This document shows positions 335 through 62,377 of a DNA stretch of 64,000 nucleotides, piece after piece. A model generated the notes under the pieces. It searched no databases and was not told the DNA's origin. It saw only the letters and a program-made list of their open reading frames with translations. Source of the DNA: a virus; the IMG/VR virus record IMGVR_UViG_3300043419_002186, positions 1-64,000 of that record; one strand, 5' to 3'. Each line of letters opens with the position of its first letter. Position 1 is the first letter of the stretch. The translations under genes were made by a program, and so were the position numbers.

Positions 335-670
335 ATGGCCGACAACCCGTCCGACAGCATCACAGCCGTCCTCGACCCAGCACTCCGTCGCCCCTTCGCC
401 CTGTTCGTGGCCGTGGTCGCGTCCGTCACTCTTGTCATCGTCGGCCTCTCGAAGGCCGAGGACTTCGTGGACGGGCGCGTCGAGATGAAGCTCACCGCGC
501 AGCGCGAGAAGGCCGAGGAACAGGCCATCAAGCTCCAGCGAATGGAGGAGCAGTTCGCGGCCATGCGAGACACCCTCGCGGAGATTCGCGCCGACGTTCG
601 AGTGCTGCGCTCGCGCGTCGAGCGCGAATCACCAGCAGCGAAGAGTGAATCGATTCGGAGGGACCCTTGA
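335..670 (+). CDS. Single-TM coiled-coil protein (holin-like?)
   Basis: GGAG SD; hydrophobic FALFVAVVASVTLVIVGL followed by a coiled coil. Confidence 0.6.
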   Translation: MADNPSDSITAVLDPALRRPFALFVAVVASVTLVIVGLSKAEDFVDGRVEMKLTAQREKAEEQAIKLQRMEEQFAAMRDTLAEIRADVRVLRSRVERESPAAKSESIRRDP

Positions 671-1083
671 GGAAGAAGCTCGCGTGCCCTGCGGTGCAGT
701 CGAAGTTCCGTCGTCAGGTCAACATGACCTCCGACGAGATTCGGCGTTGGGCTGCGGACCCGCGGGCGAAGTGCGCCTCGTTCAAGGAGACGGTCCAGCG
801 GCTCACGCAGCCTCAGATGTGGAAGGGCAAGATGCGTCCCTCCCTTGCCACGCTGCGGGCAAAGCGCCCTGATGCTTGGACCGAGACCGACTGTGAGTAC
901 GCGGTTCGCGTGAACAGCTTCAACTCCCGCATGCAGGGCATGGTGGACAAGTGGGGGTGCAAACCCCGAGCGTTGCTGTCTTTGAGAAACTGGGGTAGGA
1001 TGCCTCCGAAGTGCAGCATGGAGGTTCTCGATGCCTTGGGAAAAGACTGTCGTCGGCGTAGGCGAAAGGTTCGCAGAGCTTGA
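667..1083 (+). CDS. Basic Cys-containing hypothetical protein
   Basis: TTG start overlaps the upstream stop; Arg/Lys-rich. Confidence 0.6.
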
Positions 1084-1726
1084 AGCGGTGGAAGAGGCCG
1101 CGAAAAAAGGGAAGCACCGCTACATGCGATGCCGTTGTTCCTGCGGGCAGGAAAAGGTCGTGAAGCTCTCTCACCTTCGGGATGGTCGAATCCGAAGCTG
1201 TGGTCATCTTCGCGAGGCTGCAAGAGGCGAAGGACAGCCTGAAGCTGTTCCCGGCGCCACGTGGATTCCCGTCACTGGCAACAACTGGATGCTGGTGGAT
1301 GAGCTGGATGCCCCGTTGTTCGCGGAGCACAAGCTCCAAATGAATGCAGGGTACGCCTACTTTCATGTGCGTGATGGGCGCTGGCAATACCGCGCTGTTC
1401 CCGCGCATCGGCTGATTCTTGGGGTGGCTGACAGGCCAAAATCGGAAGTCGAAGTGGACCATGCCAACGGGAATCGACTCGACAACCGACGGGAGAACTT
1501 GAGGCTCTGCACGCGCGGAGAGAACGCGAAGAACATCCGTGGCCGTGCGCTTTCGGGGTTCAAGGGGGTCACCGTGGTGAAGGGTCAATGGAAGGCCGTC
1601 ATCCAAGCCGACCGGGTGATTCATCGTCTCGGGAGCTTCGACACCGCCGAAGAGGCGGCACAGGCCTACGATGATGCCGCCCAGCGTCTGCATGGCGAGT
1701 TCGCCCGATTGAACTTTCCGGGGTAA
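1031..1726 (+). CDS. HNH-AP2 homing endonuclease
   Basis: [20 protein letters not shown] motif; SGFKGV...[19 protein letters not shown]2 domain; codon usage differs from neighbours. Confidence 0.9.
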
Positions 1727-1769
1727 GCTCGGGCACCGAACTGCCGCCCCAAGAAGAACAGGTAACGAC

Positions 1770-2384
1770 ATGGCCAACTTTGCAAACCTCGCAGAGCTGA
1801 AGTCTGCACAGCAGGCCGTCGCGGACGCCTCTGTCCGCATCGGTCAGCAGATGGTGGACGCGGACGCGGCATACTCGAAGCCTTGGTTTGGTCCCGGCCG
1901 TGACATGTACCTCGCTGCTCAGAACATGAAGCAGACGCTGCAGTCGTGGATGGAAACGGCGCGCGAGTTCGTGACGAAGGGGACCATCAGCGGCAGCACA
2001 GCCACGAAGGAACAGGCCGCGAACCTGCTCAAGAAGGGTGCAAAGTTCGTGAACGATTATGCGGACGCGCTCAAGTCCTCGATGCAGTACGCCCCATCGG
2101 CCATTGCTGGCCGTGCGCTGGGCAACGTCGCGGGACGGCTCTTCGGCATCGGCAACGACATGTTCGACGCTGCCGAATCGATTCTGAAGGCGAGCGCAAA
2201 CACGCTGAAGTGGCTCCCTTGGCTCATCCTCGGCGCCGTTGTCATCCCCTTCGGCATCAAGGTCTACCTCGCGAAGAAGCGCGGTGGCACTGACGCTGCC
2301 CTCGAAGCCGCGGGCAGCGGCATCTCCGCTGGTCGGGAGCGCGCAGTCTCCGCGGCCAAGCGCGTCTTCAGCAGGAGCCGCTGA
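1770..2384 (+). CDS. Putative virion membrane protein
   Basis: TM segment WLPWLILGAVVIPFGI followed by basic residues. Confidence 0.7.
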   Translation: MANFANLAELKSAQQAVADASVRIGQQMVDADAAYSKPWFGPGRDMYLAAQNMKQTLQSWMETAREFVTKGTISGSTATKEQAANLLKKGAKFVNDYADALKSSMQYAPSAIAGRALGNVAGRLFGIGNDMFDAAESILKASANTLKWLPWLILGAVVIPFGIKVYLAKKRGGTDAALEAAGSGISAGRERAVSAAKRVFSRSR

Positions 2385-2875
2385 TGCCCATCATCAACTC
2401 GTCTCTCGGCTTCCTCGGCGTTGGCACCTCGAAAGAGGACGCGACTGCTGCCGCTGGCGCTGCCATCGAGATGTGGACACTGGCCAAGGTCAAGTTCGAC
2501 GGCGTGAAGGTCTACTGCGAGAGTGGCTATGGCGCGTTCCTCGACGCTCAGCTCAAGAAGGCGCAGGACCTGCTCGTCAAGGTGCAGAAGTCCACGAAGG
2601 GCGTCACCTTCTTCGGCCCACTGGCAGAGGATGCGGCCAACAGCCTCGCCATCGCCAAGGCCGTTGTCGAACAGTTCAAGCAGGTGAGCGATGCGGTCCT
2701 CGCGGGCCGCCCCCCGATGCGCGGCTCCGTGAAGGTGCCTGTCATCGGAGGCGAGGGCGCTTTCGTCCTCGGGCCCGGTGCCGCCATCGCGGTCGCGCTC
2801 GTTGGTGGCGCGCTCATCCTCTTCGCCACCTACAAGGGCGCACGCGCTGTGAAGGCGCGCTTCCGTTCCCGGTGA
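2384..2875 (+). CDS. Putative virion membrane protein
   Basis: C-terminal TM plus basic tail; translationally coupled (TGATG). Confidence 0.7.
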   Translation: MPIINSSLGFLGVGTSKEDATAAAGAAIEMWTLAKVKFDGVKVYCESGYGAFLDAQLKKAQDLLVKVQKSTKGVTFFGPLAEDAANSLAIAKAVVEQFKQVSDAVLAGRPPMRGSVKVPVIGGEGAFVLGPGAAIAVALVGGALILFATYKGARAVKARFRSR

Positions 2876-2878
2876 CCG

Positions 2879-3193: not shown

Positions 3194-3245
3194 TCGGGTC
3201 CGCTTCCCCGGTGTAAGCTGCTGCCGAATCGATTCGGGAGAGCGC

Positions 3246-4024: not shown

Positions 4025-4090
4025 CTGGTCGCCTCACATCCACCGTGTTACGCTTCCCCCCGCGAATCGATTCACCCCGGAGCTTCCTCG

Positions 4091-4861: not shown

Positions 4862-5271
4862 TGGGCAAGCTCCCGAAGCTGAAGCATCCGCCACTCCCGC
4901 CTCCTCCGCGCCTTCGCGTGGCAGCTCCTCCTGTCGTTGCGCCTCCCGCGAAAGAGACTCTGCGCGTCAGCGCAGAGGACCTGTGGGCCCTTGAAAAGGC
5001 GATGCTCATTGCCGAGAAGGCTGAGGTCGAGAAGAGCTACGCGCTCGCGAAGCGTGCTCTTCTTCTCGTTCAGCTCGACATCGGCGGCAAAATCACCGCT
5101 GCCGAGCGAGAAGCTGCCGCTGCAGAGAAGCTCATCGCGAAGCAGCGTGAAGAGTACCAATCCCGCATCGAATCGATTCGGGTCAAGCTGGGGATCACAG
5201 GGGCGTTCGAGTTCGACTCCGAGTCCGGGGTCATAACCGCCGGAACCACCCCGGCACCGCAGAAGGAGTAG
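4861..5271 (+). CDS. Coiled-coil hypothetical protein
   Basis: TGATG coupling; Pro-rich N-terminus then helical. Confidence 0.7.
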   Translation: MGKLPKLKHPPLPPPPRLRVAAPPVVAPPAKETLRVSAEDLWALEKAMLIAEKAEVEKSYALAKRALLLVQLDIGGKITAAEREAAAAEKLIAKQREEYQSRIESIRVKLGITGAFEFDSESGVITAGTTPAPQKE

Positions 5272-7896: not shown

Positions 7897-7917
7897 TCGA
7901 ATCGATTCGGAGGGCGA

Positions 7918-8195: not shown

Positions 8196-10958
8196 ATGGC
8201 GCTAAGCAACTTCGTCAAGGCAGACAACACCACCGCGCTCAACCTCGTTGGGTCGTGGGTGGGTGGTTCTGTTCCCAATGCCGTCACGGCGCGTGTGCAA
8301 GCCAACTCGACGATGACCGCGTCGCGCTCGGCTGTGCTCGGCGCATCCCTCACGTTCGGGCAGATTGAGGTCAGCAACCCCGTTGGTCTTCTCACCATCG
8401 CGAACACGGCGAGCGCCGTTCTCACGCTCACGCCGACAGACCCTGATGCCGCTGGGCGCGGCATCAACATCCTCGACACGGCGACGCAGGGCCTCACCAT
8501 CTCGAACGCGCTCGTCACGCTGGGCGCGGACCAGACGTGGTACGCGGGCAACGCGAAGCAACTGACGGTGAGCGGCGTCATCTCGGGCGCCTTCAACCTG
8601 ACGAAGAGCGGCAACGGCTTCCTCTCCATGAACGGTACGAACACGTTCGGTGGCTCGGGAAAGACGTTCACGCTGGCGAACGGGGCCATGGCCCCGACGA
8701 ACAATGCTGCGCTCGGAAGCGCGCTCAACCTCGTTGATATTCAGGCGGGGTCGTACATCGACCTCACGACTTTCACGCCGCAGCAGACGCAGTTCAAGGC
8801 GTCGGGCTTCGGAACGTGGTTCGACGCGGCATCGCCCTATCAGCGGTACACGGCCGTGGCCTTTGGCACGTTCGCCTCCACGAAGACGATGACGGTGTAC
8901 GGCTCGGCTGTCGCCCTTTCGATGTACGTTGTGACCATTGCTGGCAAGATTACGGGCAGCGTCACGAACACCATCGAGTTCAGCGCGTCCGTCTCTCCCG
9001 CCGCCTTCAACAACACGACGAACGACTTCTACGCCCCCGGCGGCGTGCAGATTTCCTCCTTCGCCATCTCATCTCTGAACGTCCTGAACTTCGGCTACAA
9101 CGTCGGCGCGACGGACGCTGCCGCAGGTGGTGCGAACGAGCCCGCTCCGTTCGGTGACATCCGAAACACCGTCCGCGTGCTCCCTTCGGGACGCCTCTAT
9201 GCCGCTCCCGGGGCCAGCACCACGCGCACGGTGGCCCGCACCATCAGCTTCGACGGTGACCCTGCGAACACGGCGATTCAGAACGCGTCCGCATCAACGA
9301 CGAGCACCCTTGCCTTCTCGGGACCCCTGACGTTCTCGAACACCGCGGGCGCCGTCGAAGTGCTGACCGGCGGCAGCCTCATCAGCTTCCGAAAGAGCAT
9401 CACGGGCGCGGGCGGTATGCGTGTCAGCGGCGGCGGAACCCGCGTCGAGTTTGACAGCACGGAGGCAGGTGCGTTTTCAAGCTGGAGCGGGACGATTACC
9501 GCGCCCAACGACTGCACGATTCAGTACGGCAACGGCTACGCCACGCTGACCAACCCACTGGTCACGACGGGCGCAGGCAACATCGAAACGATTCTGAACA
9601 ACAAGCTCGCGCAGGACATTACGCTTGCACATTCGTCCTATTCGTTCGGGGACGACATGCTGTTCAGCGGCACGAACAGCGGCTACATCATCGACCTTGG
9701 AACAGCGCCGGTAACGGGAAGCGCGGGCACCGTCTACAGCGCAGCCACGGGCACCACTGTCAAGATGCCCGGTGACATCACGGGCCAGCTCATCTTCGGC
9801 AAGGGCAGCAACGGCGGCACCATCATTGTGAGCGGAACGAACACGCGCTCAGGAGGCGTGGGGTCCACCATTGGCTGGTCCTCTGGAAGCCTGCATCTCA
9901 ACAGCGCGTCTGCGCTTGGAAACGGCGGCACTGCTGCCGATGCCATCGTCTTTTCCGGCACGACGCTCGGCACCCTCGACAACACGTCGGGAAGTGCCGT
10001 CACGCTGCTGAACAGCGGCGTCAAGCAGCTCGACGGCAACTTCACGTGGGGCGGCACGAACAACCTGAATCTCGGTGGCAACAACGTCACACGAAACGCG
10101 GCGCGCACCATCACGTTTGGGACCGGCGGCGGAACGGGAACGCTGACGTTCCCAAGCCCCATGACCACGACGACGGGCACCTTCACGCTCAACATTGGCG
10201 GAAGCACGACAGGGGCGAAGCAGCGAGTCGTCCTCATCGGCGCCAGCTCCTTTGCACCCACGTCGGGGGGCATCTCCAGCGTCACCGCGGGCTACTTCCA
10301 GATTCAGAACAGCGATGGCCTCGGCGCTGCTGCGAACACGGTCAACTGGTACGTCGGAATGACCACGGGCGGCGTCGCCACGACGGGCGCTGCACTTGAG
10401 CTGAGGGGAAACATCAGCGTCCCCAACACGAAGAACGCCTACTTGCGCGGCACGGGGCCCAACACTGACGGCGCCTTCCGTTCGGTGAGCGGTAACACTG
10501 CGTGGGCGGGCGGTCTCATTCCGCACATCGCCACGCTGACGCGGTTCCAAGTGGACGCGGGAACGCTCACGCTTACCTCGTCGCTCTACCCCAACATCTC
10601 TCCCACGAACGCGAGCACACCCCTCGCCTTCACGGCGCTTTCGGGTGCGACTCTCGACACGGGAGGCCGCGTCCTCACCTCGAACGTCAGCACCGTCAAC
10701 ATCAACAACGGTGGTTCGGGCACGGTCATCTTCCGCGCTGCCAACTCCCACGTGGGCGCGAACACCATTGAGGGCGGGACCCTTCAGATTACGAACGCCG
10801 CCGCCTTGGGCTCTGCCTCTGGCAACTCGACCACCATCCTCCCCACCGCCACGTTGCAGATTGCGGTCCCGTCCACGTACAGTGCCACGTTCAAGGGGAC
10901 GACCACCTTCGGTCAAACGGGCAGCACCACGGCTGCCAACCTCATCATCGGCACCTAG
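8196..10958 (+). CDS. Beta-helix adhesin-like protein (autotransporter-associated beta-strand repeats)
   Basis: 920 aa; LTKSGNGFLSMNGTNTF and GSGTVIFRAANSHVGANTIEGGTL repeats; no beta-barrel or signal peptide. Confidence 0.8.
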   Translation: MALSNFVKADNTTALNLVGSWVGGSVPNAVTARVQANSTMTASRSAVLGASLTFGQIEVSNPVGLLTIANTASAVLTLTPTDPDAAGRGINILDTATQGLTISNALVTLGADQTWYAGNAKQLTVSGVISGAFNLTKSGNGFLSMNGTNTFGGSGKTFTLANGAMAPTNNAALGSALNLVDIQAGSYIDLTTFTPQQTQFKASGFGTWFDAASPYQRYTAVAFGTFASTKTMTVYGSAVALSMYVVTIAGKITGSVTNTIEFSASVSPAAFNNTTNDFYAPGGVQISSFAISSLNVLNFGYNVGATDAAAGGANEPAPFGDIRNTVRVLPSGRLYAAPGASTTRTVARTISFDGDPANTAIQNASASTTSTLAFSGPLTFSNTAGAVEVLTGGSLISFRKSITGAGGMRVSGGGTRVEFDSTEAGAFSSWSGTITAPNDCTIQYGNGYATLTNPLVTTGAGNIETILNNKLAQDITLAHSSYSFGDDMLFSGTNSGYIIDLGTAPVTGSAGTVYSAATGTTVKMPGDITGQLIFGKGSNGGTIIVSGTNTRSGGVGSTIGWSSGSLHLNSASALGNGGTAADAIVFSGTTLGTLDNTSGSAVTLLNSGVKQLDGNFTWGGTNNLNLGGNNVTRNAARTITFGTGGGTGTLTFPSPMTTTTGTFTLNIGGSTTGAKQRVVLIGASSFAPTSGGISSVTAGYFQIQNSDGLGAAANTVNWYVGMTTGGVATTGAALELRGNISVPNTKNAYLRGTGPNTDGAFRSVSGNTAWAGGLIPHIATLTRFQVDAGTLTLTSSLYPNISPTNASTPLAFTALSGATLDTGGRVLTSNVSTVNINNGGSGTVIFRAANSHVGANTIEGGTLQITNAAALGSASGNSTTILPTATLQIAVPSTYSATFKGTTTFGQTGSTTAANLIIGT

Positions 10959-11264: not shown

Positions 11265-11347
11265 TCGAATCGATTCGGAATCGTGGGCGGGGTGACCGGC
11301 TTGGGGTAATCTTCCCCGGTCGGCACCCCCCCACTTGTGAGGAACTC

Positions 11348-17817: not shown

Positions 17818-17874
17818 CCGATTGGGCGGCTTGCACCTTCGCAGGTACACTGCCGAATCGATTCGGAGAACCAC

Positions 17875-19429: not shown

Positions 19430-19445
19430 AGCCGAATCGATTCGC

Positions 19446-19971: not shown

Positions 19972-20010
19972 TCCCACTTCACCTCAAACCGAATCGATTC
20001 GGAGACTCCA

Positions 20011-40934: not shown

Positions 40935-40978
40935 GTTGCGTCCTTTCCGCCCCGTGGGGCCTTGACGAATCGATTCGT

Positions 40979-45513: not shown

Positions 45514-45583
45514 GACTGGACTTGGGACCAGTCGGTGCGGTTACGCCGCGGGGCGAATCGATTCACCCCGCGGTCCCTCACGC
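45514..45583 (-). ncRNA. Twister-like ribozyme B
   Basis: GCGU GAGGGA [P1] CGU^AA CCGC AC C GACUGG UCCCAAGU CCAGUC. Confidence 0.8.
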
Positions 45584-46124: not shown

Positions 46125-46195
46125 GGACGGACTTGGGACCGTCCTGTGCGGTTACACCGCGGCGAACCGAATCGATTCACCACGGCCCCTCACGC
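46125..46195 (-). ncRNA. Twister-like ribozyme C
   Basis: GCGU GAGGGG [P1] UGU^AA CCGC AC A GGACGG UCCCAAGU CCGUCC. Confidence 0.8.
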
Positions 46196-47872: not shown

Positions 47873-47890
47873 GGCCGAATCGATTCGGCC
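47873..47890. repeat. 18-bp perfect palindrome GGCCGAATCGATTCGGCC
   Basis: Longest perfect version of the genome-wide motif that I saw; upstream of the ParB-like gene. Confidence 0.9.
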
Positions 47891-49267: not shown

Positions 49268-50257
49268 CTACCAGCCGAGGCCTCGAAGTTCCATCTCCGT
49301 CGGAGGCACTTCGTCGTCGGAAATGCCGCGGAGGGAGTACTTCGGGGGGTAGTACGCGTCTGACGCTGGCTGCAGAATCTTCATGCGAACGAGGTAGTCG
49401 AGGACTGCGCCGACAAGCCGCTGCCTCGCGGGTGTGGACATGTCAGGCGCGAGCTTCCTCTCGAAGGCCCGCTCGATGTAGGTCTGCTCGCGAGGGCCCC
49501 GCAGGAGGCTCACGGGCGTGTCGAGGCTGCTCGCGACCATGATGGCGAGGCTTCCTCCGACAGGGGAGCCGTCCGTCGGGAGCCCCTTCGACTGCAGCCA
49601 CTGCTCGACTTCGTAGTCGGCGCGCTCCTCCTCGGACATCGGCTCTTCTTCTAGGGCGCGCTCCACGTCCTCCTCGACCTCGTCCCTCGTCGGTGCCCGC
49701 GAGTCCGCCTTCGCCCGCTTCTTCGCGGGAGCCTTGCGAGGCTTCGGGACCTCGACCTGCTCCTCCTCGTCCCTGTCGAACTCCTCGTCCGCTTCGCGGA
49801 CGGGTCGCGTGCGCTTTGCGCGACGCTCGACGGCGGTCTCGGTGTCCGTGTCCGAGGCCTCGGGAATCGATTCGGCGCGAGCCGCGGCCTTGCGCGTCGT
49901 CCGCACGCGCTTCGGCTTGGCCCTCGTTTCGAGCGCAGTCGCTTCGGAGGCCTCTTCCTGCTCCGCGGGGAGTGCGCGCTCCTCGACCTGTGTCTCGAAC
50001 ACGTCCACCGGCTCAGCGGGGGCCCGCGACTTGCGGGGGATGCCCTTCTCGCGCTGGATGGGCGCGAGAGAGGGCATCGGATACCTGTCCGTGAGCAGGA
50101 ACCACACGGGACCGCGAGGGGTCTCGACCTTCTCGAAGTCGCGACCCTCTTCGAGCCTCTTGCCTCGGCCCGTGCCGTCCTTGCCCAGCATCCACTTGAG
50201 CACGGTGCGGCGGTTGACGTTCCACTTCAGTGCCGCTTCGGCAACGGTCATACGCAT
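49268..50257 (-). CDS. N-terminal HTH protein with long charged linker
   Basis: MTVAEAALKWNVNRRTVLKW excisionase-like HTH. Confidence 0.7.
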   Translation of the reverse strand: MRMTVAEAALKWNVNRRTVLKWMLGKDGTGRGKRLEEGRDFEKVETPRGPVWFLLTDRYPMPSLAPIQREKGIPRKSRAPAEPVDVFETQVEERALPAEQEEASEATALETRAKPKRVRTTRKAAARAESIPEASDTDTETAVERRAKRTRPVREADEEFDRDEEEQVEVPKPRKAPAKKRAKADSRAPTRDEVEEDVERALEEEPMSEEERADYEVEQWLQSKGLPTDGSPVGGSLAIMVASSLDTPVSLLRGPREQTYIERAFERKLAPDMSTPARQRLVGAVLDYLVRMKILQPASDAYYPPKYSLRGISDDEVPPTEMELRGLGW

Positions 50258-50266: not shown

Positions 50267-51925
50267 TTACTCCTGCCCGCGGCGGATGACCGTCCAGCCC
50301 TCGGGAACAGCGACGGGATGGACGGGGGACGTGATGATGACCTGCTGTGGGCAGGAGGTGAACGCCTTCAGGACCTCGAAGAGCGTGACGTCGTCAAAGG
50401 CGCGCTCCTCGGGGATGAGGCACGCGTACTGCCCCGGCTCGGCGCACGCGCTCGCCATCGCGGCCGTGACGCGGGCCCACTCGGCACCCGACAGGGCCGT
50501 GTGCAGCTTGCCGTCGCGGACGAGACCGAACTGAACGACCTCTCGGTCGCCGTCGCGCAGGTTCAGAGCGAACGTGTCCGTCGGGGGCAGGTTCGACTGG
50601 ACCTTCGCGATGAAGGCGGCGCGGGCCGTGTCGAGGACGCTGCCGACGGCGGCTTCGCAAGCCTCCTTCAGCGTGCGCCACTCCTCTCCTCGTCGCTCCG
50701 CGTCGAGGGCCGCGCTCTCGGCCTTCTGCACGCTGTTCCAAGCGTCGCGTGCGCCCCGCAGCTCCTGCAGCTTCTCGTCGGCGGATTCGAGCGCCTTCTC
50801 GCAGTCTTCGAGCGAGGGGCCCGTGTACTCGCCAGCGGCCTCGACCTCTGCGAGGCGCGTCTCGACCGTCTCCAGCGCGTTCTGAGCGTTCGACAGCTCG
50901 ATGACCGCGGACTGCAGCTCCCGGTCCACAGCGTCGTGCTGCACGTTCTTCGCACGCTGCTCCGTCACGGCGCTCTTCGTCGCCTCGACCAGCTCCTTCG
51001 TCGGAGCAGCGCCGTCGCACACGTAGCAGATGCCGTCCGAGAGCGAGATGTCCATGGCCGTGATGACGCTGTCGAGAGCCGGGTGGATGGTCGCGGGCTT
51101 GCCGAGTGCCGCGAGCTTCTCACGAAGGCCCGCCACCTTGGCGGTGGCAGCTTCGAGCGCGGTCTTGCGGATGGCCACGGTGTTCTGATGCGACGAGAGC
51201 TGCACCAGCTTGTGCGAGGCCGTGTCCGCGATGCTGTGCTGCTTGCGCGCGTCCTCGCGAGCCTTCACGGCGGCAGAGACCTCTGCCTCGCTCGGGGGCG
51301 ACATGCGGCCACCCGACACCAGCTTGCCAGCCTCGCGCTGCGTCTTCGCGGCGCTGTTCGCGTCACGCTGCTGCTTGCCCGCGTACTCCAGCACCTGCAC
51401 AAGCGCGTCGGCAGCGGGAATCGATTCGGGCACCGTCTCGCTCGCGGCGCGCCACGTGGAGCGCACGACCTCGGGGAGAAGACTCTCGATGTCGTTTCGC
51501 GTCGTGCTCCCGCAGACCTTGCCGATGAGGAACTTGCGCGCAGTGACGGGGGAGCCGAGCAGCGCCTCCTTCATCGTGCGGATGGTGAGGACGTCGCCGG
51601 TCTCGATGGCGGGGCTTCGAGAAGCCGAGTGCTTCTTCGCCTTCGCCGTCGAGCCCTCGACTCGGTAGATGGCAGCGTCCCCGTTGTCGAAGAGGACCTC
51701 AGCGACGATGGCGCTCGCGTCCTTCGGAGCGAGCTGCATCACGTCCGCTTCACGCGCAATGTCCGTGCGACCGGCGATGTCACCCACGCGAGAGGTGAGC
51801 GCCAGCTCGATGGCGTTGACGATGGTGCTCTTGCCTGAGCCGTTGGGGCCCACGACGAGCGTCTTGGGGCCGATGGCAACATCGCACCCCGCCTTCACGT
51901 TGCTCTTGACCTTGACGATGTTCAC
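50267..51925 (-). CDS. Rad50/SbcC-like SMC-family ATPase
   Basis: GPNGSGKST; coiled coils around a CYVC hook; LSGAE signature; degenerate Walker B (LIPEE). Confidence 0.85.
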   Translation of the reverse strand: MNIVKVKSNVKAGCDVAIGPKTLVVGPNGSGKSTIVNAIELALTSRVGDIAGRTDIAREADVMQLAPKDASAIVAEVLFDNGDAAIYRVEGSTAKAKKHSASRSPAIETGDVLTIRTMKEALLGSPVTARKFLIGKVCGSTTRNDIESLLPEVVRSTWRAASETVPESIPAADALVQVLEYAGKQQRDANSAAKTQREAGKLVSGGRMSPPSEAEVSAAVKAREDARKQHSIADTASHKLVQLSSHQNTVAIRKTALEAATAKVAGLREKLAALGKPATIHPALDSVITAMDISLSDGICYVCDGAAPTKELVEATKSAVTEQRAKNVQHDAVDRELQSAVIELSNAQNALETVETRLAEVEAAGEYTGPSLEDCEKALESADEKLQELRGARDAWNSVQKAESAALDAERRGEEWRTLKEACEAAVGSVLDTARAAFIAKVQSNLPPTDTFALNLRDGDREVVQFGLVRDGKLHTALSGAEWARVTAAMASACAEPGQYACLIPEERAFDDVTLFEVLKAFTSCPQQVIITSPVHPVAVPEGWTVIRRGQE

Positions 51926-52634: not shown

Positions 52635-52966
52635 TGGAGCGTCTCCTCGTTCTGAGTCGATTCGGGGGCCTTGCGGAAGATGAAGACGGGGTTCGTGTCA
52701 CCGAAGTGCGCGCCGATGATGTTGAAGCCGTACCATTCGAGGGCTTCCTCCTCGGTCATGCCGTCGCGGTCTTGCAGAATCTTGAGGAGCTTCTCTCCGT
52801 CGTAGACGAGGCGCACCTTGCCTCCGAACTCCTCACCGAAGCCGATGATGGCGTCGTCGAGGCCGTCGAGGACGATGATGTTCGTATCCTCGTCCATCTC
52901 GCCCACGGTCTCCTGAATCCACTCCTCGATGGTGCTCTTCTTCTCTTCGTTCTCGTTGTCACTCAT
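52631..52966 (-). CDS. Conserved acidic phage protein
   Basis: DGLDDAIIG...VYD...DGMTEEEALEWYGFNIIGA. Confidence 0.75.
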   Translation of the reverse strand: MSDNENEEKKSTIEEWIQETVGEMDEDTNIIVLDGLDDAIIGFGEEFGGKVRLVYDGEKLLKILQDRDGMTEEEALEWYGFNIIGAHFGDTNPVFIFRKAPESTQNEETLQ

Positions 52967-53322
52967 CGGTCGTCCTCGGGAAAGTGCTGTGCCATGCACA
53001 GCGAGCAAACATGCTTCACGGCGGGGGCTGTCCAGTTGCGGTCGTTCGTGTCGCCAGCACGAACGCGAAAGTCACTCGCGGGGAGATAGCCCCAGCCATC
53101 CATCTCGGTCGCTTCGAGCACCGACTTCTGAAAGTCGAACGCGGTCTCGGTGCCCCGCGCCATCGGGTCCCACTCGATGGTGGGTTCGACGCCGAATCGA
53201 TTCCTCGCGACGCAGAAGTCGCAGCGGAGCGTGAACGCTGCGTGCATCTCCATTATTGCGCGCTCCTTGCCCTTCTTCGTAATGGTGTACGAATGGGAGC
53301 GCAGCACCCCTGCTTTGCTCAT
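52963..53322 (-). CDS. Zn-finger paralog 5
   Basis: CDFC...DGW...HVCSLC. Confidence 0.7.
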   Translation of the reverse strand: MSKAGVLRSHSYTITKKGKERAIMEMHAAFTLRCDFCVARNRFGVEPTIEWDPMARGTETAFDFQKSVLEATEMDGWGYLPASDFRVRAGDTNDRNWTAPAVKHVCSLCMAQHFPEDDR

Positions 53323-53648
53323 TCGGGAATCTCCTGCTTCACGCACTCGGGGCACGCGTGCTGGACGTTGTGGACGCGCTCCTTGAGAGGAACACGACGC
53401 AGCTTCGTTATGTGCCTCTCCAGACGAGCCCATCCATCGGGAATCGATTCGGTAGTCTCCTTCGTGCCGAAGACGAAGAGGCGCGGGTTCCTCTTCGTGC
53501 GAAGCCACTCGGGCAGCGTCAGCGAATGATTGTCAGCATCATCGGGACAGAAGTCGCAGTAGATGCCCCACTGCTTGTCCGTATCGAAGAACGACTCTCC
53601 GTACATGTTCGTCCCGTCCCTTGGGATGGAGAACATGATGAGGCTCAT
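53319..53648 (-). CDS. Zn-finger paralog 4
   Basis: CDFC...PDGW...CPECVKQEIPE. Confidence 0.7.
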   Translation of the reverse strand: MSLIMFSIPRDGTNMYGESFFDTDKQWGIYCDFCPDDADNHSLTLPEWLRTKRNPRLFVFGTKETTESIPDGWARLERHITKLRRVPLKERVHNVQHACPECVKQEIPE

Positions 53649-54291: not shown

Positions 54292-54460
54292 CGGAGCGCT
54301 TCCCGTCGAGGGAGTCGATGTACTCGACCAGCTCCGTGTAGTGGTGCTCGTTCGCAAACCATGCGCGCAGCGTGGCGCGGCCCTTGGGCGTCATCTCGCG
54401 AATGTCCTTCTTGATGCTCTCATCGAGCAGGGGCTCTTCGCGAATCGATTCGTCAGTCAT
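54284..54460 (-). CDS. 58-aa hypothetical protein (not in ORF track)
   Basis: MTDESIREEPLL...; overlaps both neighbours. Confidence 0.55.
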   Translation of the reverse strand: MTDESIREEPLLDESIKKDIREMTPKGRATLRAWFANEHHYTELVEYIDSLDGKRSDA

Positions 54461-54981: not shown

Positions 54982-57605
54982 CACACGTCTGCCCACGTCT
55001 TTCCTGTCTTGGGCTTGGCGGCGAACTCGACGCCGTCGAGTCCCCACACCGCACGGTTCATGTGCTTCTTGAGCATCTTCTCGACCCACTCGGCTTCGCT
55101 CTCGGGGCACTCCACGTAGAGCGCGTCGTGCACCTGCGAGATGAGGCCCGTGTTCGGTCCCCACTTGCCGAAGGGAATGTCCTGCAGGAGGTCGAAGGTG
55201 CTCTCATGGATGATGTGCGCACCCGCACTTTGAATGGGGTGGTTCACGATTTCATTGAACGCCTCGCCATCGAGGAAGTCGCGCTGACGGCCCCACACGG
55301 GGTCTCGCACGTAGCCCTTCTCTCGGAAGCCCTCGACGGTCTTGTCCCACCACTTCGGAAGCTCGGGGATTCCCTTGAGCCAGTTGCGCTTGAGCGTCGC
55401 GACCTCGCGCAGCGTCAGGTCCGGGTACATCAGGTTCCCGTTCTCGTCCTCTGCCGATGTGACGAGGTTGTGCACCGTCTCGTCGCCTGAGCCGTAGAAC
55501 GAGGCGTACTTGATGCCCTTCGCAATCTTGCGCAGCTTGTCCCACATGTCACTCTTCGGCTGCAGCGCATCGAACTTCGCGCCAAACATCAGCGAAGCCG
55601 TCATCGCGTGCGGGTCCTTCTTCGCAGCGAACGCTTCGAGGTAGATGCGAATCTGCGCGATGGCAGTGATGATGCGAAGCTCAAGCTGGTCAGCGTCCGC
55701 TCCGACGATGACGTTCCCCGGCGCAGGGATGATGAGCTTGCGCAGGTGCTTGGGCCAGTTCTGCGCGTTCGGATTCGAGCTGCTCAGGCGACCTGACGTG
55801 GTGCCATGCGCGTTGTAGTCGGGGCGCACACGGCCATCGAGCGAGATGAGCCCCCGCTGCGCCTCCTCCTGCTCATCCTCGCTCGCGAACTGGAAGCCGT
55901 CGAGAGGAGAGTTGTAGGGGATGAGGCGGCGAACGTAGGTGCCGTATTCCTTCGCCACGCGGCGGTAGCGGCGCAGCGTGTCGAGGAACGCGACGACCTG
56001 CTCCTTGTTCTGAACGGACGGGTCATCCTTCACGCCCGCGCGCATGAGACGAACGCACTCGTCGTTGGTCGAGGGGTCGCCCAGCTTTGTGTAGTCCGCG
56101 GGAGGGAGAGACCACTCCTCGAAGAGCAGGTCCCGAAGCTGAGGGACGCTGTTCATGTTGATTTCGCGTCCGAGAATCGATTCGGCGTGCTTGCGGAAGT
56201 GCGCAATCTTCGTGAGCAGCTCCTTCGCAGCCACATCGCGAGCGGCGCGGTCAACGAGGAGCCCGTTCTCATGGAGGCCAACGCAGACCTCCTGCACCTT
56301 GTGGTCCTTCTTGACGACGCTCTCCTGCTGACGCTCGACCACGGCGCGCGAGAGCTGGGGAACCACGCGAGCGGTGACGACGCAGTCCACCGCGTTGTAG
56401 TGCTGCAGCTCCTTGTCCGTGCTCGCCTCCGTGGCCGTGTGCGCGTCCTTCCAAGCGACCACGTCCGTGTAGATGGAGCCGACGTATCCGAGCTTGTGCG
56501 GCAGCTCAGGCTCGACGCAGCGGTGCAGGAGGATGGTGTCGATGAGCGGCTTCGGGTCCACGCCGAAGTGCTGCTTGATGACCATGCGGTCGAAGTAGCC
56601 CGCGTTGTGGCCAATCTTGAGCTTGTTCGGGTCCGAGAAGAAGTCGCGCAGGATGGAGCGCATCTCCTCCACCTGACCGCTGGTGTACTGCGGAGGAGGA
56701 ATGAGCGCGCCGCCGGGGCCCTCGATGGAGAGGAAGGGGACGACGATGGCGCCGTACTCATGCCCGATGCCCACGGTCTTGAGCTTCGCGACCATCGGGT
56801 CATCGACGGTGGTCTCGACGTCGAACGTGTAGTCGATGTCGGTGCGAGCGACGAAGGCGCGCAGCTCGTCGGGCGTGGGAAGCAGCTTGATTTGTGGCTC
56901 TCGCCAGCCGAGGCCGACGGTGAACCATCGGTAGGCGCGCGAGAGGTCCGAGCGGAAGGCGCGTGACCAGCGACGCGTGCGCATCACGAAGGCAGGATGC
57001 AGCGTCGGGAGCACACGAATGGCGAATCGATTCGGGTCCTCCGTCTCCGAGAGGAAGTCGTTCGCGTCGTTGAGGAAGGCCTCCACGGGACCACCGCGGA
57101 TGTCCATGATGGAGCGCTGCTTGCGCGTCAGGGCCGTGTAGGGGACCTTGCCCAGCGTGATGATGCGCTGCATCCCCATCAGCTCGTTCATCAGGCGGGG
57201 TCGGCAGCACTCGATGGGAGAGGGCAGGAGGGCTTCGCCCTTTTTGGCGAGCTTCTTGTTCGCCCGCTGCCACTTGAGCATGACCTTGTCGAGGTCGTTC
57301 TCGGGAGCGCGGCAAGCGACGGCGTGGTGCAGGTTCATCGACTGACGACGGATGCCGAGCGCCTTGAGAGCGTTCGTGAACTCCATGCCACCAGCGCCGG
57401 TCAGGGGACGCCCCGTCTCGCACTCCTTCTCAGCGGGCGCCTCAGCGATAACGGCAATCTCCGCATCCTCGCGAAGTTCGGGTCCCACGGGACCACCTTC
57501 TCGCGAGGTGCGGAGAGTGCATTGCGCGCAGTTGGCACCGAGCTTCTCGGGGTCGTAGGTCCCCTCGTTGTACATCTGAAACAGCAGCGCTCGCGTGCCG
57601 TTCAT
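54981..57605 (-). CDS. polA: Family A DNA polymerase with N-terminal UDG-like and 3'-5' exonuclease domains
   Basis: FDVET and HNAGYFD exonuclease motifs; TTSGRLSSSNPN, ADADQLELR, RKIAKGIKY, QVHDAL; UDG-like EAP...GRP...HPAF. Confidence 0.95.
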   Translation of the reverse strand: MNGTRALLFQMYNEGTYDPEKLGANCAQCTLRTSREGGPVGPELREDAEIAVIAEAPAEKECETGRPLTGAGGMEFTNALKALGIRRQSMNLHHAVACRAPENDLDKVMLKWQRANKKLAKKGEALLPSPIECCRPRLMNELMGMQRIITLGKVPYTALTRKQRSIMDIRGGPVEAFLNDANDFLSETEDPNRFAIRVLPTLHPAFVMRTRRWSRAFRSDLSRAYRWFTVGLGWREPQIKLLPTPDELRAFVARTDIDYTFDVETTVDDPMVAKLKTVGIGHEYGAIVVPFLSIEGPGGALIPPPQYTSGQVEEMRSILRDFFSDPNKLKIGHNAGYFDRMVIKQHFGVDPKPLIDTILLHRCVEPELPHKLGYVGSIYTDVVAWKDAHTATEASTDKELQHYNAVDCVVTARVVPQLSRAVVERQQESVVKKDHKVQEVCVGLHENGLLVDRAARDVAAKELLTKIAHFRKHAESILGREINMNSVPQLRDLLFEEWSLPPADYTKLGDPSTNDECVRLMRAGVKDDPSVQNKEQVVAFLDTLRRYRRVAKEYGTYVRRLIPYNSPLDGFQFASEDEQEEAQRGLISLDGRVRPDYNAHGTTSGRLSSSNPNAQNWPKHLRKLIIPAPGNVIVGADADQLELRIITAIAQIRIYLEAFAAKKDPHAMTASLMFGAKFDALQPKSDMWDKLRKIAKGIKYASFYGSGDETVHNLVTSAEDENGNLMYPDLTLREVATLKRNWLKGIPELPKWWDKTVEGFREKGYVRDPVWGRQRDFLDGEAFNEIVNHPIQSAGAHIIHESTFDLLQDIPFGKWGPNTGLISQVHDALYVECPESEAEWVEKMLKKHMNRAVWGLDGVEFAAKPKTGKTWADV

Positions 57606-58266: not shown

Positions 58267-58294
58267 TGGAGACTCCTCTCGAATCGATTCAGTG

Positions 58295-59614: not shown

Positions 59615-59771
59615 AGTGCTCTCCGTGGTGCGGGGGGAATCGCGTCCCGAGCGGGCCCCACAACCTCTTGCCCATGTTCTGCCACGTCTCACCATGAGAG
59701 CGGCCCCGCCATGTGCGAACGGGGGTCTTCAGCGCGTGGGACCGTGAGTGCGCCGAATGGATTCGTGTGAG

Positions 59772-60686
59772 CTACGCCGTGTAGAGCTGGAACATCTGCT
59801 GCTGCCGCATGCGGCGCAGGTAGGCGCGGTCGAGGGCATCGCGCATGACCCAGCGGACGTGCAGGTCGTTGTCGGTCTTCTCGCGAGCAATCTCGATGAC
59901 CTCGTTCATCAAGGCCTTCTCGTTCGTCGGGTCCGCGATGAGCGCCTGAGTGAAGGCCTCAACCAGCTTCTCCTGCCACTCAAGACCAGCGGCGCGGCGA
60001 ATCTCGTAGCCAGCGGCGCGGAGAATCTCGGCCGTGTTCATCGGCGCACGGTCGGGCGTGACACCGTGGCGGTCCTTCGAGACCCAGCTCGGGTCGTCGA
60101 TGGTGCAGCGGTAGATGGCGTGCCAGCCGCGGCGGCTGCTGTCGAAGGTGGCGCGGAGGACGAGGTCACACGCAGTCGGGAGGTCCTCGGGGAGACGGCC
60201 GGGGAGCTTGGGGCCACCGCGGACGAAGACACCGTTGACGGTGCGAGGCGTGCTTTCGTGAGCGGTGAGGACGACGTGCATCCCGACGCGGCGAGCGGTG
60301 TCGCGGAACTCCAGCACGACGTCTCGGAGCGCGCCCCACAGCTTGAAGCCGCTGTGCTTCTTCTCAAGCTGCGCGATGGTGCTCTCAGCGAGAAGTGAGA
60401 AGTCGTCCACGATGACGGCGTCGTACTTCGAGCCGAATCGATTCGCCACGTCCACGACCTTCTTGGTCGCGTCCATGATGGTGCGGGTCTCGCCATCGTC
60501 GCTGTCGGGTGTGAAGCCGACGACGTTCAGCGAGGGCTTGAGCGCGCCGGGGGGCGCGATGAAGTAGCCGTGGGGGAAGGAGTAGAGCAGGTCGGTGGTC
60601 TTGCCGATGCCGCTCGGGCCGTAGTTCGCGACGACGGCCTTCGTGCCGCCGTACAACGTGTTGCTCTTTTCGTTCACTGCTGCCAT
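59772..60686 (-). CDS. Sak4-like (AAA_24) recombination ATPase
   Basis: YGPSGIGKTT, VIVDDFS, VVLTAHE, PKLPG, KDR. Confidence 0.85.
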   Translation of the reverse strand: MAAVNEKSNTLYGGTKAVVANYGPSGIGKTTDLLYSFPHGYFIAPPGALKPSLNVVGFTPDSDDGETRTIMDATKKVVDVANRFGSKYDAVIVDDFSLLAESTIAQLEKKHSGFKLWGALRDVVLEFRDTARRVGMHVVLTAHESTPRTVNGVFVRGGPKLPGRLPEDLPTACDLVLRATFDSSRRGWHAIYRCTIDDPSWVSKDRHGVTPDRAPMNTAEILRAAGYEIRRAAGLEWQEKLVEAFTQALIADPTNEKALMNEVIEIAREKTDNDLHVRWVMRDALDRAYLRRMRQQQMFQLYTA

Positions 60687-60786: not shown

Positions 60787-60814
60787 ACTTTAGTGGTTCC
60801 GCGGGCAGTGTCAA
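60787..60814 (-). promoter_or_regulatory. Sigma70-type promoter candidate
   Basis: TTGACA-16 nt-TAAAGT, with a second TTGACA 7 bp upstream. Confidence 0.55.
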
Positions 60815-60877
60815 GTGTCAAAGTCACTTTTCCGCGGAACCACCACAGGTGGTAGGTCGAGTCCAACGACTCCACTG

Positions 60878-61144
60878 CTAGTCGTCGCTGCGGAGGCCGT
60901 CCAGCTCGTCCTCCAGCTCCTCAATCTCCTTGTGCGCGGAGGCGAGGTCGGCCTCCAGCTTCTCGACGCGGGCGCTCTGCTCCGCAAGCTCAACGAGCCG
61001 CGGCAGCTCCGCGAGCCACTGCGCGACGAGCGAAGCGTTGTAGGGCCAGAAGACGGTGGCGATGGTGCGTCCGTAGCCGTCCGTGATGCGGTTGCCCTTG
61101 GCGGTCCAAGGCCCCGGCGGAAGGTGCGTTTTTGGTGGCAGCAT
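60878..61144 (-). CDS. Small phage protein
   Basis: PGPW motif plus coiled coil; AAGGAG SD. Confidence 0.7.
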   Translation of the reverse strand: MLPPKTHLPPGPWTAKGNRITDGYGRTIATVFWPYNASLVAQWLAELPRLVELAEQSARVEKLEADLASAHKEIEELEDELDGLRSDD

Positions 61145-61173
61145 GTCGTGCTCCTTGCAGCTTTCGCTGCGTC

Positions 61174-61992
61174 CTAGAAACCGCCCCAGCGGCAGGTTTC
61201 AAAGTGTTCACAGGGCCCGTAGGCTGTGATGCAGGTCTGCTCCGAGAGAGCCATCGGCCACTCCTTCGGAGGGATGTCGCTCGCGTCCAGCGCTTCGATT
61301 CGCTGGCGCGCGTGCAACACCGTAAGAGGGAACGTGCGCTGTGCAGAGGGCGCGGGGTCGGGCTCGCTTCGCTGGAACTTGAAGCCGTTCGTGCCAAGCT
61401 CGATGAAGTTCATGCGGACGCCGCCGAACTCGTCTCCCCACACCTGACGGCCGAACATCGCCATGCCAAGGAACTGCCCCGACAGCGTGTAGCGCTCGGG
61501 CGTGTTCCCCGTGAGTCGTCCCGTGGTCTTGTGGTCCCAGATGTAGACCTTGCCATCGGGCCCCCGGACGACGAGGTCGAGACGCTGCGTGAAGGCGAAG
61601 CCTCCAATCGTGCTTCGGAAGACCTCCTCCACGTGGAGCACCTCGGCCTTTTCGTTCATCCAGTGCAGCTTGTACTCGCGCACCGCGGCCTTCGCGAGCG
61701 GCACGTACTGCGCCGCGTACTGGCCGCGCAGCTTCGCCTCGTTCTCAATGCCCTCGTCGGGCGTGGCCCACTCGTTCTCGTCGCGTCCCTGCTGTCTGCT
61801 CTGCATCCTCGCGTAGTGCTGCGCGAGGCCAGCGTGGACGAGAGAGCCCTTGAGAAGCGCGGGACGGTCGGTCTCCTCCTTCTCGATGATGCCACGGTAC
61901 TGGTACGCGAAGAGGCGAGGGCAGCGCATCGCGACCTCGGTCGCGTGCCATCCCCATTCTCCCGATGAACCTGCGTCGATGAACTTTCCCAT
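61174..61992 (-). CDS. Cas4-like PD-(D/E)XK exonuclease
   Basis: CPR...RLDLV...WDHKT...C...CEHFETC (four Fe-S Cys). Confidence 0.9.
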   Translation of the reverse strand: MGKFIDAGSSGEWGWHATEVAMRCPRLFAYQYRGIIEKEETDRPALLKGSLVHAGLAQHYARMQSRQQGRDENEWATPDEGIENEAKLRGQYAAQYVPLAKAAVREYKLHWMNEKAEVLHVEEVFRSTIGGFAFTQRLDLVVRGPDGKVYIWDHKTTGRLTGNTPERYTLSGQFLGMAMFGRQVWGDEFGGVRMNFIELGTNGFKFQRSEPDPAPSAQRTFPLTVLHARQRIEALDASDIPPKEWPMALSEQTCITAYGPCEHFETCRWGGF

Positions 61993-62065
61993 CACAAGTC
62001 TCCATTGAACGCCATGGCGGCGAGAGCTGCTCCCACAACACAGCCGAAGAGGAACATGGCGACCA

Positions 62066-62377
62066 TCATCGAGGCCCCGCGTTCGCGGGCGTGCCGTGGC
62101 AGAGCCAGCAGTCGAGGTTCCTGCACTTGGGCTCTCGCGGGTCACGCGAATCGATTCGAGCTGCCTGTAGCTTCCTGATGGTCTCCTGCAGCGCATCTAG
62201 CTGGTCTTGATGCTTCGCGATGACACGCATCATGGCGAGGTTCTGCCGCAGCAGCGACTCCTCGCGCAAGGCGAGCCTGTCGTGCTCCGCGAGAAGCGCG
62301 GTGGCGTAGTGGGGCAGCAGGAACACGCCGTCGTTCACGGCAGTGCGGATGTCTTCGAGTTCTTCCTTCGTCATCAC
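62066..62377 (-). CDS. Ead/Ea22-like protein
   Basis: MTKEELEDIR...ALLAEHDRL. Confidence 0.6.
   Translation of the reverse strand: MMTKEELEDIRTAVNDGVFLLPHYATALLAEHDRLALREESLLRQNLAMMRVIAKHQDQLDALQETIRKLQAARIDSRDPREPKCRNLDCWLCHGTPANAGPR

Follow-up and report, generated by a model that had tools for sequence, protein, structure and literature searches.

The 10-bp palindrome GAATCGATTC is a real, strongly selected and evenly spaced DNA signal of a clade of uncultured phages from freshwater metagenomes. It was studied in the IMG/VR virus record IMGVR_UViG_3300043419_002186 (G000 in the following), a complete genome (85,791 bp, G+C content 64.8%) that has a direct repeat of 127 bp at its termini; the stretch analysed, referred to as the window, comprises its bases 1 to 64,000. 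The window contains 43 copies of the word and the complete genome 59 (688 per Mb), where about 0.1 copies are expected by chance. In 100 dinucleotide-preserving shuffles of the window, the mean was 0.08 and the maximum 1 copy. We tentatively read the copies as docking or loading sites for a phage-encoded, sequence-specific DNA-binding system, for which a module at 46.7–50.3 kb encoding a ParB-family and a Xis-like protein is the likeliest candidate.

Exactness, codon-level writing and spacing of the palindrome

The 43 start coordinates given in the initial annotation of the window were all matched exactly (Table 1). The core was said there to be often extended, which holds for the complete set: C stands at position −1 in 44 and G at +1 in 49 of the 59 copies, so that the 12-mer cGAATCGATTCg is the usual form (34 exact 12-mers in G000). 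The shorter word AATCGATT occurs 61 times in G000, and 59 of these occurrences are part of the full word. One-mismatch copies number 12 in the genome, compared with 2.3 expected; nine of them lie in the window, precisely the nine listed before and no others. With 59 exact and just 12 one-mismatch copies, the word is therefore close to all-or-none. The array is not an assembly artefact, a possibility raised at the outset. Relatives assembled independently from other metagenomes have the word at equal density (38 copies in G001, a 57-kb record of 76% completeness; 14 in 22.6 kb of L116; 3 in 5.7 kb of L115), and contigs of another study (runs X3 and X4) span the region at about 94% identity. A megablast search of cultured phages yielded no close relative of G000, and its PolA is at most 26% identical to that of any GenBank phage.

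Selection on the DNA rather than on the protein, as proposed in the initial annotation, is strongly supported by codon-aware shuffles. In the 88 confident genes, the word is written at 28 of the 28 places where the peptide permits it, whereas synonymous-codon shuffles of the same genes contained 1.14 copies on average and 5 at most. These places comprise 20 cases of ESI followed by a C-initial codon, 3 of NRF, and 5 of (R/G)IDS; the codons GAA and ATT are in the minority (22% and 20%, respectively). Since ESI followed by a C-initial codon would be seen about once according to a rough estimate from amino-acid composition, the amino-acid sequence itself is bent to the word. About 60% of the copies in G000 lie inside genes and are read in all three frames, including those in PolA, the tyrosine recombinase, and Sak4, as had been noticed before (frame usage 34:16:11 for G000 and G001 pooled). 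The other 24 of the 59 copies (about 40%) are found in non-coding or unclear DNA; non-coding DNA makes up about 9% of the genome. The earlier division of the window's copies into roughly 22 intergenic and 21 genic ones was about right.

Several arrangements of the word relative to genes recur. In late genes, it touches the Shine–Dalgarno (SD) sequence with the layout GAATCGATTCGGAG-N6-ATG, and in early operons the order is stop codon, 1–4 nt, word, GC hairpin, SD, and start. In three of the twister-P5-like ribozymes between early cistrons, a copy of the word makes up the apex of the variable stem, a position that accepts any palindrome. Four such ribozymes are located between early cistrons (44268–46731, minus strand); the one at 46669–46731 scores 38.9 bits, over the Rfam gathering score of 37.6, and the others score below it (36.2 at 44268–44340, 28.7 at 45516–45582, and 27.7 at 46127–46194). 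Most early-gene SDs on the minus strand between 35700 and 48000 directly follow a short, GC-rich hairpin whose loop has 4 nt (ACGG, TACG, GTGG, or TGCG). This hairpin may be a 5′ stabiliser of the mRNA acting together with ribozyme cleavage.

The copies are evenly spaced along the genome. The mean gap in G000 is 1.44 kb, and only 2 of the 58 gaps are shorter than 600 bp, compared with 19.7 expected under random placement (P<5e-5); gap lengths have a coefficient of variation (CV) of 0.66, as against 0.98 under random placement. In G001, 4 gaps fall below 600 bp, compared with 12.2 expected (P=5e-5), with a CV of 0.58. The one-mismatch copies occupy the largest gaps, for example that at 14102, which stands alone in a gap of 6.6 kb, and 10 of the 12 are more than 600 bp away from any exact copy (29% expected, P=2e-4). 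From the even spacing and the near-copies in the gaps we infer that the sites behave as one per territory, as if a second site nearby were useless.

Turnover and variants of the word among relatives

A scan of IMG/VR for the 14-mer CCGAATCGATTCGG returned 102 stretches with one 14-mer match each, one of which (L095) carried seven copies of the 10-mer and led to G001. This genome is syntenic with G000, with a PolA of 63% identity and 65–76% nucleotide identity over the alignable 15 kb. In the alignable DNA, just 4 of 10–12 sites are orthologous, and for several of the remaining sites a counterpart is found 12–120 bp off in the other genome. The array thus turns over at constant regional density; as far as the alignment indicates, the presence of a site per region is kept and its exact position is not. 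Aligned sites differ by substitution without gaps, and these gapless substitutions rule out an origin of the copies as insertions or footprints.

More members of the clade were obtained by profile searches with PolA and with the SbcC-like ATPase. The metagenome scan with PolA added L244 and small fragments only, and the SbcC-like ATPase has many homologues on long contigs in the larger collection. The words of these relatives diverge around the shared ATCGAT. In L244, AATCGATT has free flanks, and the word is RATCGATY in L008/L009 (21 ATCGAT in the 14-kb record of L009). The complete 75-kb genome G006 carries CATCGATG, with 114 ATCGAT compared with about 7 expected (spacing CV 0.79, P=0.006). 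In L007 and L121-123, the word is AACCGATT, which is strictly asymmetric and used in both orientations: in 28 sites, these lineages never have AATCGATT or AACCGGTT, and the orientation counts within one transcription direction are 5:4 in L007 and 4:4 in L122. The density of the variant words is similar to that of GAATCGATTC. An array is absent from L117-L119, L246, G007, and more distant relatives, and the word classes are not monophyletic in the PolA tree. In G006 (L257, locus 15900–20600), CATCGATG often doubles as SD, spacer, and start (AGGAGG-CATCG-ATG), and the array word is thus part of the translation start of many small genes.

In G000, G001, G006, and G007, nearly all other 6-bp palindromes are purged, with 28–36 words below 0.2 of expectation. 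CAGCTG, CTCGAG, GAGCTC, GGATCC, and GGTACC were each found 0 times (about 29 expected) and GCCGGC once (99 expected). Despite this purge, ATCGAT is 7–16-fold enriched, so that the word persists in the face of a strong general pressure. Beside ATCGAT, TCGCGA is the sole enriched 6-bp palindrome of G001 and G006, and in G000 CCGCGG is the sole addition; the enrichment is about 3-fold for TCGCGA in all four genomes and about 2.4-fold for CCGCGG in G000. Among the 4-bp palindromes, AATT and TTAA are absent from the 85.8 kb of G000 and TATA occurs once. The purge suggests that Type II restriction systems are abundant in the host range. With 35 copies, GATC is depleted about 8-fold in G000, and 11 kb of L007 contain none; in G001, it is 2.8-fold enriched (511 copies), and CGATCG occurs there 81 times. 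The lineages of G000 and G001 seem to be under opposite GATC-directed pressures.

Candidate readers and alternative explanations

According to the explanation we tentatively favour, a reader would bind the ATCGAT-centred word with two-fold symmetry, and from each site the protein would act over about 1 kb, for example by loading of a ParB-type clamp and subsequent sliding. One site per territory would then suffice to cover the whole genome for silencing, organisation, or protection. The two genes to which the array is provisionally assigned are given in Table 1. Profile and structure-database matches identify the protein of 46739–47836 as a genuine ParB-family member: it matches PF02195 (ParB_N) with 30.2 bits (cut-off 26.3), and in a phmmer search against the PDB it aligns to Myxococcus ParB (7bnr, E 2e-11) across the CTPase-fold domain and the helix-turn-helix (HTH). 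In G000, G001, and G006, both genes occupy the same syntenic place downstream of the SbcC-like gene. Both are missing at that place in the array-less relative G007 (PolA 59% identical). Otherwise, G007 keeps PolA, Sak4, the Cas4-like nuclease, the helicases (including that with DUF3987), and the recombinase (61% identical). PF02195 is present in 3 of 3 array genomes and in 0 of 8 records of array-less relatives. The only 18-bp perfect palindrome of G000 is the longest copy there and is located 37 nt upstream of parB (GGCCGAATCGATTCGGCC). In G001, an 18-bp version with different outer letters, the second longest in that genome, lies 13 nt upstream of its parB. The recognition helix of the Xis-like protein, V(N/S)RRT(V/I)(L/Q)KW, reads V-N-RRT-V/I-L-KW in G000 and G001 and V-S-RRT-I-Q-KW in G006; its variable residues are thus identical in the two genomes that share the 10-mer and different in G006, where the flanks differ. 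This covariation with the word is suggestive, and because its recognition helix is conserved along with the motif, the Xis-like protein is a candidate reader.

A number of points weigh against this explanation. The helix covariation rests on three sequences, and the phyletic association on three array lineages and one close array-less relative, the other seven negatives being distant or incomplete. In the CTP box of the ParB-family protein, GKQRMRA, the G, the second R, the R, and the A are kept, but the E and the first R of GERRxRA are replaced; with its GxxRxxA box degenerate, CTP dependence is uncertain. The ParB recognition helix is PQDTVVSIF in G000 and PESTARNTL in G001 and differs again in G006, which means no covariation with the word. 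ParB as the direct reader is disfavoured because its helix differs between the two genomes sharing the 10-mer. The strictly asymmetric AACCGATT (28 sites) is not what a simple homodimer would maintain, and an exactness that is nearly all-or-none is typical of enzymes, too. Finally, about 40 small open reading frames (ORFs) are unannotated, and another reader could exist among them. From the co-occurrence, the mismatch of the ParB helix, and the match of the Xis-like helix taken together, the array is credited to the module, with the Xis-like protein as the likelier reader. By analogy, ParB could possibly be the clamp partner of the Xis-like reader, as KorA is to KorB. The roles considered in the initial annotation included a binding site for a phage protein; this one has the most support, and the phyletic pattern makes the ParB-like gene named there one of two candidates.

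Further searches around the module gave little. No ParA match was obtained among the about 60 proteins scanned, which did not include all small ORFs, and direct scans of IMG/VR with the ParB protein and the Xis-like alignment produced no further relatives. A scan for sigma-70 promoters and terminators around parB gave nothing above shuffles, no convincing iterons were found in the 47.8–49.3 kb gap, and a PDB sequence search with the Xis-like protein and the 875-aa Int_SAM-like protein described below returned nothing useful.

Among published phenomena, the dyad repeat of the Cluster O mycobacteriophages (Corndog and relatives) comes closest, and among mechanisms that of KorB-OB with KorA. The Cluster O repeat is the 17-bp dyad TGTTCGG-N3-CCGAACA with 34 invariant copies and 3 near-misses in a genome of about 70 kb; it is found between and inside genes, regardless of the direction of transcription, and was not seen in the host genomes examined. 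It has no known function, and the authors proposed dimeric DNA-binding proteins (PMC4351075). As in the phages studied here, an invariant inverted repeat is present genome-wide in more than 30 copies, between and inside genes, with few near-misses (here 59 exact and 12 one-mismatch copies). Unlike the Cluster O dyad, the half-sites here abut around ATCGAT without a spacer, and host and phage lineage are unrelated. The even spacing, codon-level writing, turnover, variants, and co-occurrence with ParB-family and Xis-like genes documented here are unreported there. On plasmid RK2, KorB, a protein of the ParB-CTPase family, loads at dispersed palindromic OB sites and slides to promoters up to 1.5 kb off, which it silences, with KorA as its clamp-locking partner (PMC11790492). 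A mobile element with a ParB-family protein, an HTH partner, dispersed palindromes, and a site at its own gene is common to both cases, with the phage components being candidates by sequence, and the reach of KorB (about 1.5 kb) matches the spacing of about 1.4 kb. However, RK2 has about a dozen sites and G000 has 59, of which most are far from promoters and many lie in genes; moreover, no ParA was seen in the phage, the CTP box is degenerate, and the ParB helix does not covary with the word.

The stoperators of Cluster A phages (L5, Bxb1) are 20–30 repressor sites distributed genome-wide, mostly outside promoters; they are asymmetric 13–14-mers that are read by a monomer and oriented with transcription, and their consensus co-evolves with the repressor (PMC6550527, PMC9283540). 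The genome-wide spread and a consensus differing between related phages are similar, but the word described here is symmetric, the asymmetric variant of the relatives points both ways within one transcription direction, and no repressor was identified. The initially suggested analogy to L5 stoperators therefore fails on orientation. Noc/NBS, SlmA/SBS, and MatP/matS comprise tens of palindromes per replicon, each read by one dimeric protein, and Noc is a ParB paralogue. Their scattered palindromes, which serve chromosome-wide organisation, resemble the phage array; unlike the latter, they are cellular, degenerate, regionally biased, and not written into genes at every opportunity.

It is conceivable, if rather doubtful, that in this freshwater phage clade a plasmid-type ParB/KorB clamp and a Xis-like partner became a system for coating the whole genome. 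About 60 even loading sites, also in coding sequence, would let the clamp cover the entire viral chromosome, either to silence the whole genome while it is in a carrier or lysogenic state or to shield and compact the DNA, and the divergence of the sites between lineages would amount to an immunity-like specificity.

An enzyme might recognise the word instead, which we consider unlikely. The candidates, with a ClaI-like ATCGAT core as target, are methyltransferases, base-modifying enzymes, and nickases, whose regularly spaced marks or nicks in the phage DNA would serve self-recognition, repair or recombination, the priming of replication, or packaging. The near all-or-none exactness would fit (59 exact versus 12 one-mismatch copies), as would the core ATCGAT, a classical Type II word and one of the very few enriched 6-bp palindromes while 28–36 are purged; AACCGATT in both orientations suits enzymes that read asymmetric words, and processes limited in distance, nick-directed repair for example, would go with the territorial spacing. 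However, no methyltransferase, restriction-like nuclease, or nickase was detected among the about 60 proteins in a non-exhaustive Pfam scan, in which the nucleases found were just the Cas4-like PD-(D/E)XK nuclease and the HNH of an intein. A protecting methylase would account for tolerance of the word, but not for an 8–16-fold enrichment, and lineage-specific flanks extending it to 10–12 bp exceed usual enzyme sites. It is improbable that the word belongs to the host, as a HIP1-like palindrome, a Chi-like exonuclease stop, or the operator of a host regulator that the phage copied to exploit or evade. The cyanobacterial HIP1 (GCGATCGC; 0 copies in G000, 2 in G001) is likewise a short exact palindrome, hugely over-represented, present in genes, and selected at the DNA level. 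Unlike the phage word, it is a property of the host chromosome shared by phages, and no cellular genome with a high density of GAATCGATTC was found among those searched. In the Genome Taxonomy Database (GTDB; 185,579 species genomes scanned), at least 120 matches to the 14-mer were listed, and among these listed matches all were singletons in unrelated taxa with at most two 10-mers per 8 kb. The 12-mer occurs at most three times per genome in 401 evenly sampled Pseudomonadota, a result independent of the unpublished genome G397 with its one copy, and the 10-mer occurs 1–9 times per Mb in five arbitrary bacteria as against 688 per Mb in the phage. The array is also missing in the close relative G007, which shares the palindrome purge, and its presence follows a phage gene module. 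In favour of a host word, relatives whose hosts are probably different carry different variants, and both orientations of AACCGATT are used equally, as a two-way protective signal would need. The consensus of Cra, a LacI-family protein, is close to TGAATCGATTCA, and a literature search for the 10-mer returned just unrelated primers and one paper on Cra binding sites, which reportedly contains the exact 10-mer (10.1101/080929); both are leads only. A broader search of full texts for palindrome arrays of phages was not informative. The HIP1-like host mark suggested in the initial annotation is weakened, having no support among the genomes searched. A search of an integrase atlas gave a weak hint to Pseudomonadota as host phylum, which served only to choose the genome sample. 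A halophilic or archaeal host was ruled out by a median isoelectric point of 6.8 and by D+E being about equal to K+R. No tRNA genes were found in the phage.

We likewise give little credence to a recombination or replication signal, that is, a hot spot for the tyrosine recombinases or a Sak4/Cas4-like system in module exchange, or a site of lagging-strand priming. The recombinase, Sak4, the Cas4-like nuclease, PolA, and the DUF3987 helicase do not need the array, because G007 keeps them all without it. Sites arise by substitution, the comparison with G001 revealed no indel bounded by two copies, and known primase sites, at 3–5 nt, are shorter than the word. Nevertheless, many copies are located at gene boundaries, 1–4 nt past stop codons, three recombinase-like proteins are encoded, and the spacing of about 1.4 kb resembles the length of Okazaki fragments (about 1–2 kb). 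Analogous repeats flank indels in Cluster O mycobacteriophages (PMC4351075). An RNA role, with the word as a small intercistronic hairpin or processing site, is very improbable. It would be consistent with the early-operon order of stop codon, word, GC-rich hairpin, SD, and start and with the three copies at the apex of twister-like ribozyme stems. However, about 60% of the copies are inside genes in all three frames, a hairpin of the word has just 3–4 pairs, the asymmetric variant of the relatives cannot fold in this way and is used in both orientations within one transcription direction, and the even spacing pays no heed to gene boundaries.

Positions, other genome features and significance

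Table 1. Exact and one-mismatch copies of GAATCGATTC in the window and the two candidate reader genes (distances in nt or bp)
Feature	Coordinates	Strand	Context
ParB-family gene	46739..47836	-	N-terminal ParB/CTPase-fold domain (GKQRMRA box) followed by HTH; candidate clamp or reader
Xis-like protein, 329 aa	49268..50257	-	N-terminal Xis/MerR-like winged HTH (weak HTH_59 match); candidate reader
Exact copy	647..656	.	3′ end of ORF 335-670 (+), frame GAA TCG ATT; next start 10 nt on
Exact copy	2175..2184	.	within ORF 1770-2384 (+), frame 0
Exact copy	3226..3235	.	intergenic; touches GGGAG SD, 10 nt 5′ of ATG 3246
Exact copy	4064..4073	.	intergenic; ATG 4091 17 nt on
Exact copy	5170..5179	.	coding DNA (uncertain gene call)
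Exact copy	7899..7908	.	2 nt past stop of ORF 6010-7896; touches GGAGG SD
Exact copy	11267..11276	.	2 nt past stop of ORF 10974-11264
Exact copy	17855..17864	.	intergenic; touches GGAG SD, 10 nt 5′ of ATG 17875
Exact copy	19434..19443	.	4 nt past stop of ORF 18956-19429
Exact copy	19991..20000	.	intergenic; touches GGAG SD, 10 nt 5′ of ATG 20011
Exact copy	20803..20812	.	within ORF 20362-21537 (+), frame 0; same place in G001, there 20-bp palindrome
Exact copy	21549..21558	.	11 nt past stop of ORF 20362-21537; G001 copy 12 bp off
Exact copy	23137..23146	.	within ORF 22905-24062 (+), frame 1
Exact copy	26701..26710	.	7 nt past stop of ORF 25056-26693; one-mismatch copy in G001
Exact copy	28732..28741	.	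uncertain coding status
Exact copy	30983..30992	.	within ORF 30718-31062 (+), frame 1
Exact copy	31958..31967	.	3 nt past stop of ORF 31052-31954; G001 same position
Exact copy	32871..32880	.	within tyrosine recombinase gene 32567-33547 (-), frame 1; G001 same position
Exact copy	33522..33531	.	5′ end of recombinase gene 32567-33547 (-); G001 same position
Exact copy	35097..35106	.	intergenic; 16 nt past stop of ORF 35123-35689 (-)
Exact copy	35727..35736	.	3 nt past stop of ORF 35740-36369 (-); then GC hairpin, SD, ATG
Exact copy	36423..36432	.	3 nt past stop of ORF 36436-37104 (-); then GC hairpin
Exact copy	37801..37810	.	3′ end of ORF 37787-38209 (-), frame 0
Exact copy	38737..38746	.	12 nt past stop of ORF 38759-39871 (-), immediately 5′ of next SD
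Exact copy	39931..39940	.	1 nt past stop of ORF 39942-40934 (-); then hairpin
Exact copy	40967..40976	.	2 nt past stop of ORF 40979-41560 (-); then hairpin
Exact copy	41612..41621	.	intergenic; 51 nt upstream of ORF 40979-41560 (-) start
Exact copy	43344..43353	.	within VWA/DUF2201 gene 42685-44232 (-), frame 0; G001 copy 36 bp off
Exact copy	44307..44316	.	apex of variable stem, twister-P5-like ribozyme 44268-44340 (-)
Exact copy	45555..45564	.	apex of variable stem, twister-P5-like ribozyme 45516-45582 (-)
Exact copy	46169..46178	.	apex of variable stem, twister-P5-like ribozyme 46127-46194 (-)
Longest version GGCCGAATCGATTCGGCC, 18-bp perfect palindrome	47873..47890, core 47877-47886	.	37 nt upstream of parB ATG
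Exact copy	49053..49062	.	1.4-kb stretch without confident genes, between Xis-like gene and parB
Exact copy	49864..49873	.	within Xis-like HTH gene 49268-50257 (-), frame 0
Exact copy	51418..51427	.	within SbcC-like ATPase gene 50267-51925 (-), frame 0; G001 copy ~30 bp off
Exact copy	53194..53203	.	within ORF 52963-53322 (-), frame 2
Exact copy	53441..53450	.	within ORF 53319-53648 (-), frame 0
Exact copy	54442..54451	.	close to 5′ end of ORF 54284-54460 (-), frame 0
Exact copy	56174..56183	.	within UDG-exo-PolA gene 54981-57605 (-), frame 0; G001 copy ~120 bp off
Exact copy	57024..57033	.	within PolA, frame 2; aligned G001 letters AATCGATTC, gap at first base
Exact copy	58281..58290	.	intergenic; 14 nt 5′ of ATG of ORF 57892-58266 (-)
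Exact copy	60435..60444	.	within Sak4-like (AAA_24) gene 59772-60686 (-), frame 2
Exact copy	62148..62157	.	within ORF 62066-62377 (-), frame 1
One-mismatch GAATCGACTC	1471..1480	.	nearest exact copy 704 bp away
One-mismatch GAAACGATTC	9585..9594	.	middle of 3.4-kb gap 7899-11267
One-mismatch GAATGGATTC	14102..14111	.	sole copy of 6.6-kb gap 11267-17855
One-mismatch GAACCGATTC	18757..18766	.	
One-mismatch GAATCGGTTC	24924..24933	.	3.6-kb gap 23137-26701
One-mismatch AAATCGATTC	25345..25354	.	3.6-kb gap 23137-26701
One-mismatch GAATCGATTG	29414..29423	.	gap 28732-30983
One-mismatch GAGTCGATTC	52654..52663	.	
One-mismatch GAATGGATTC	59755..59764	.	gap 58281-60435

The DNA polymerase (54981–57605, minus strand) is a fusion of a UDG-superfamily domain, a 3′–5′ exonuclease, and a family A polymerase that is conserved across the clade. 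Tyrosine-recombinase features were found in three proteins, encoded at 32567–33547 (minus strand) in the window and at 76075–76980 (minus strand) and 78671–81298 (plus strand) in the remainder of G000. One of them is a complete integrase and two have a SAM-like N-terminal DNA-binding domain only; one of the latter is 875 aa long and has no other recognisable domain. An intein that carries an HNH endonuclease (Intein_splicing, HNH_3) splits the gene of a SNF2-family helicase (G000 67725–70220, minus strand; L005:3725-6220), and SbcC-like ATPase homologues with inteins exist as well (P0066). The large late (virion) proteins of up to 1163 aa encoded at 1–32000 (plus strand) gave no Pfam match at threshold and no PHROG of known function, and capsid, portal, and terminase could not be named from Pfam and PHROGs.

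A few cultured phages, among them the Cluster O mycobacteriophages, are known to carry an exact palindrome in arrays across the genome, which were never explained. For the array described here, the reader is narrowed to a two-gene module that is a candidate by its phyletic pattern. Any explanation has to meet a set of rules: short-range exclusion between sites, the use of every coding opportunity, the nearby replacement of lost sites, the drift of the word between relatives up to a strictly asymmetric form, and its persistence despite the purge of almost all other palindromes. If a ParB-type reading of the array is true, the biology of CTP-dependent clamps would reach beyond the partition of plasmids and chromosomes and include the control of whole viral genomes.

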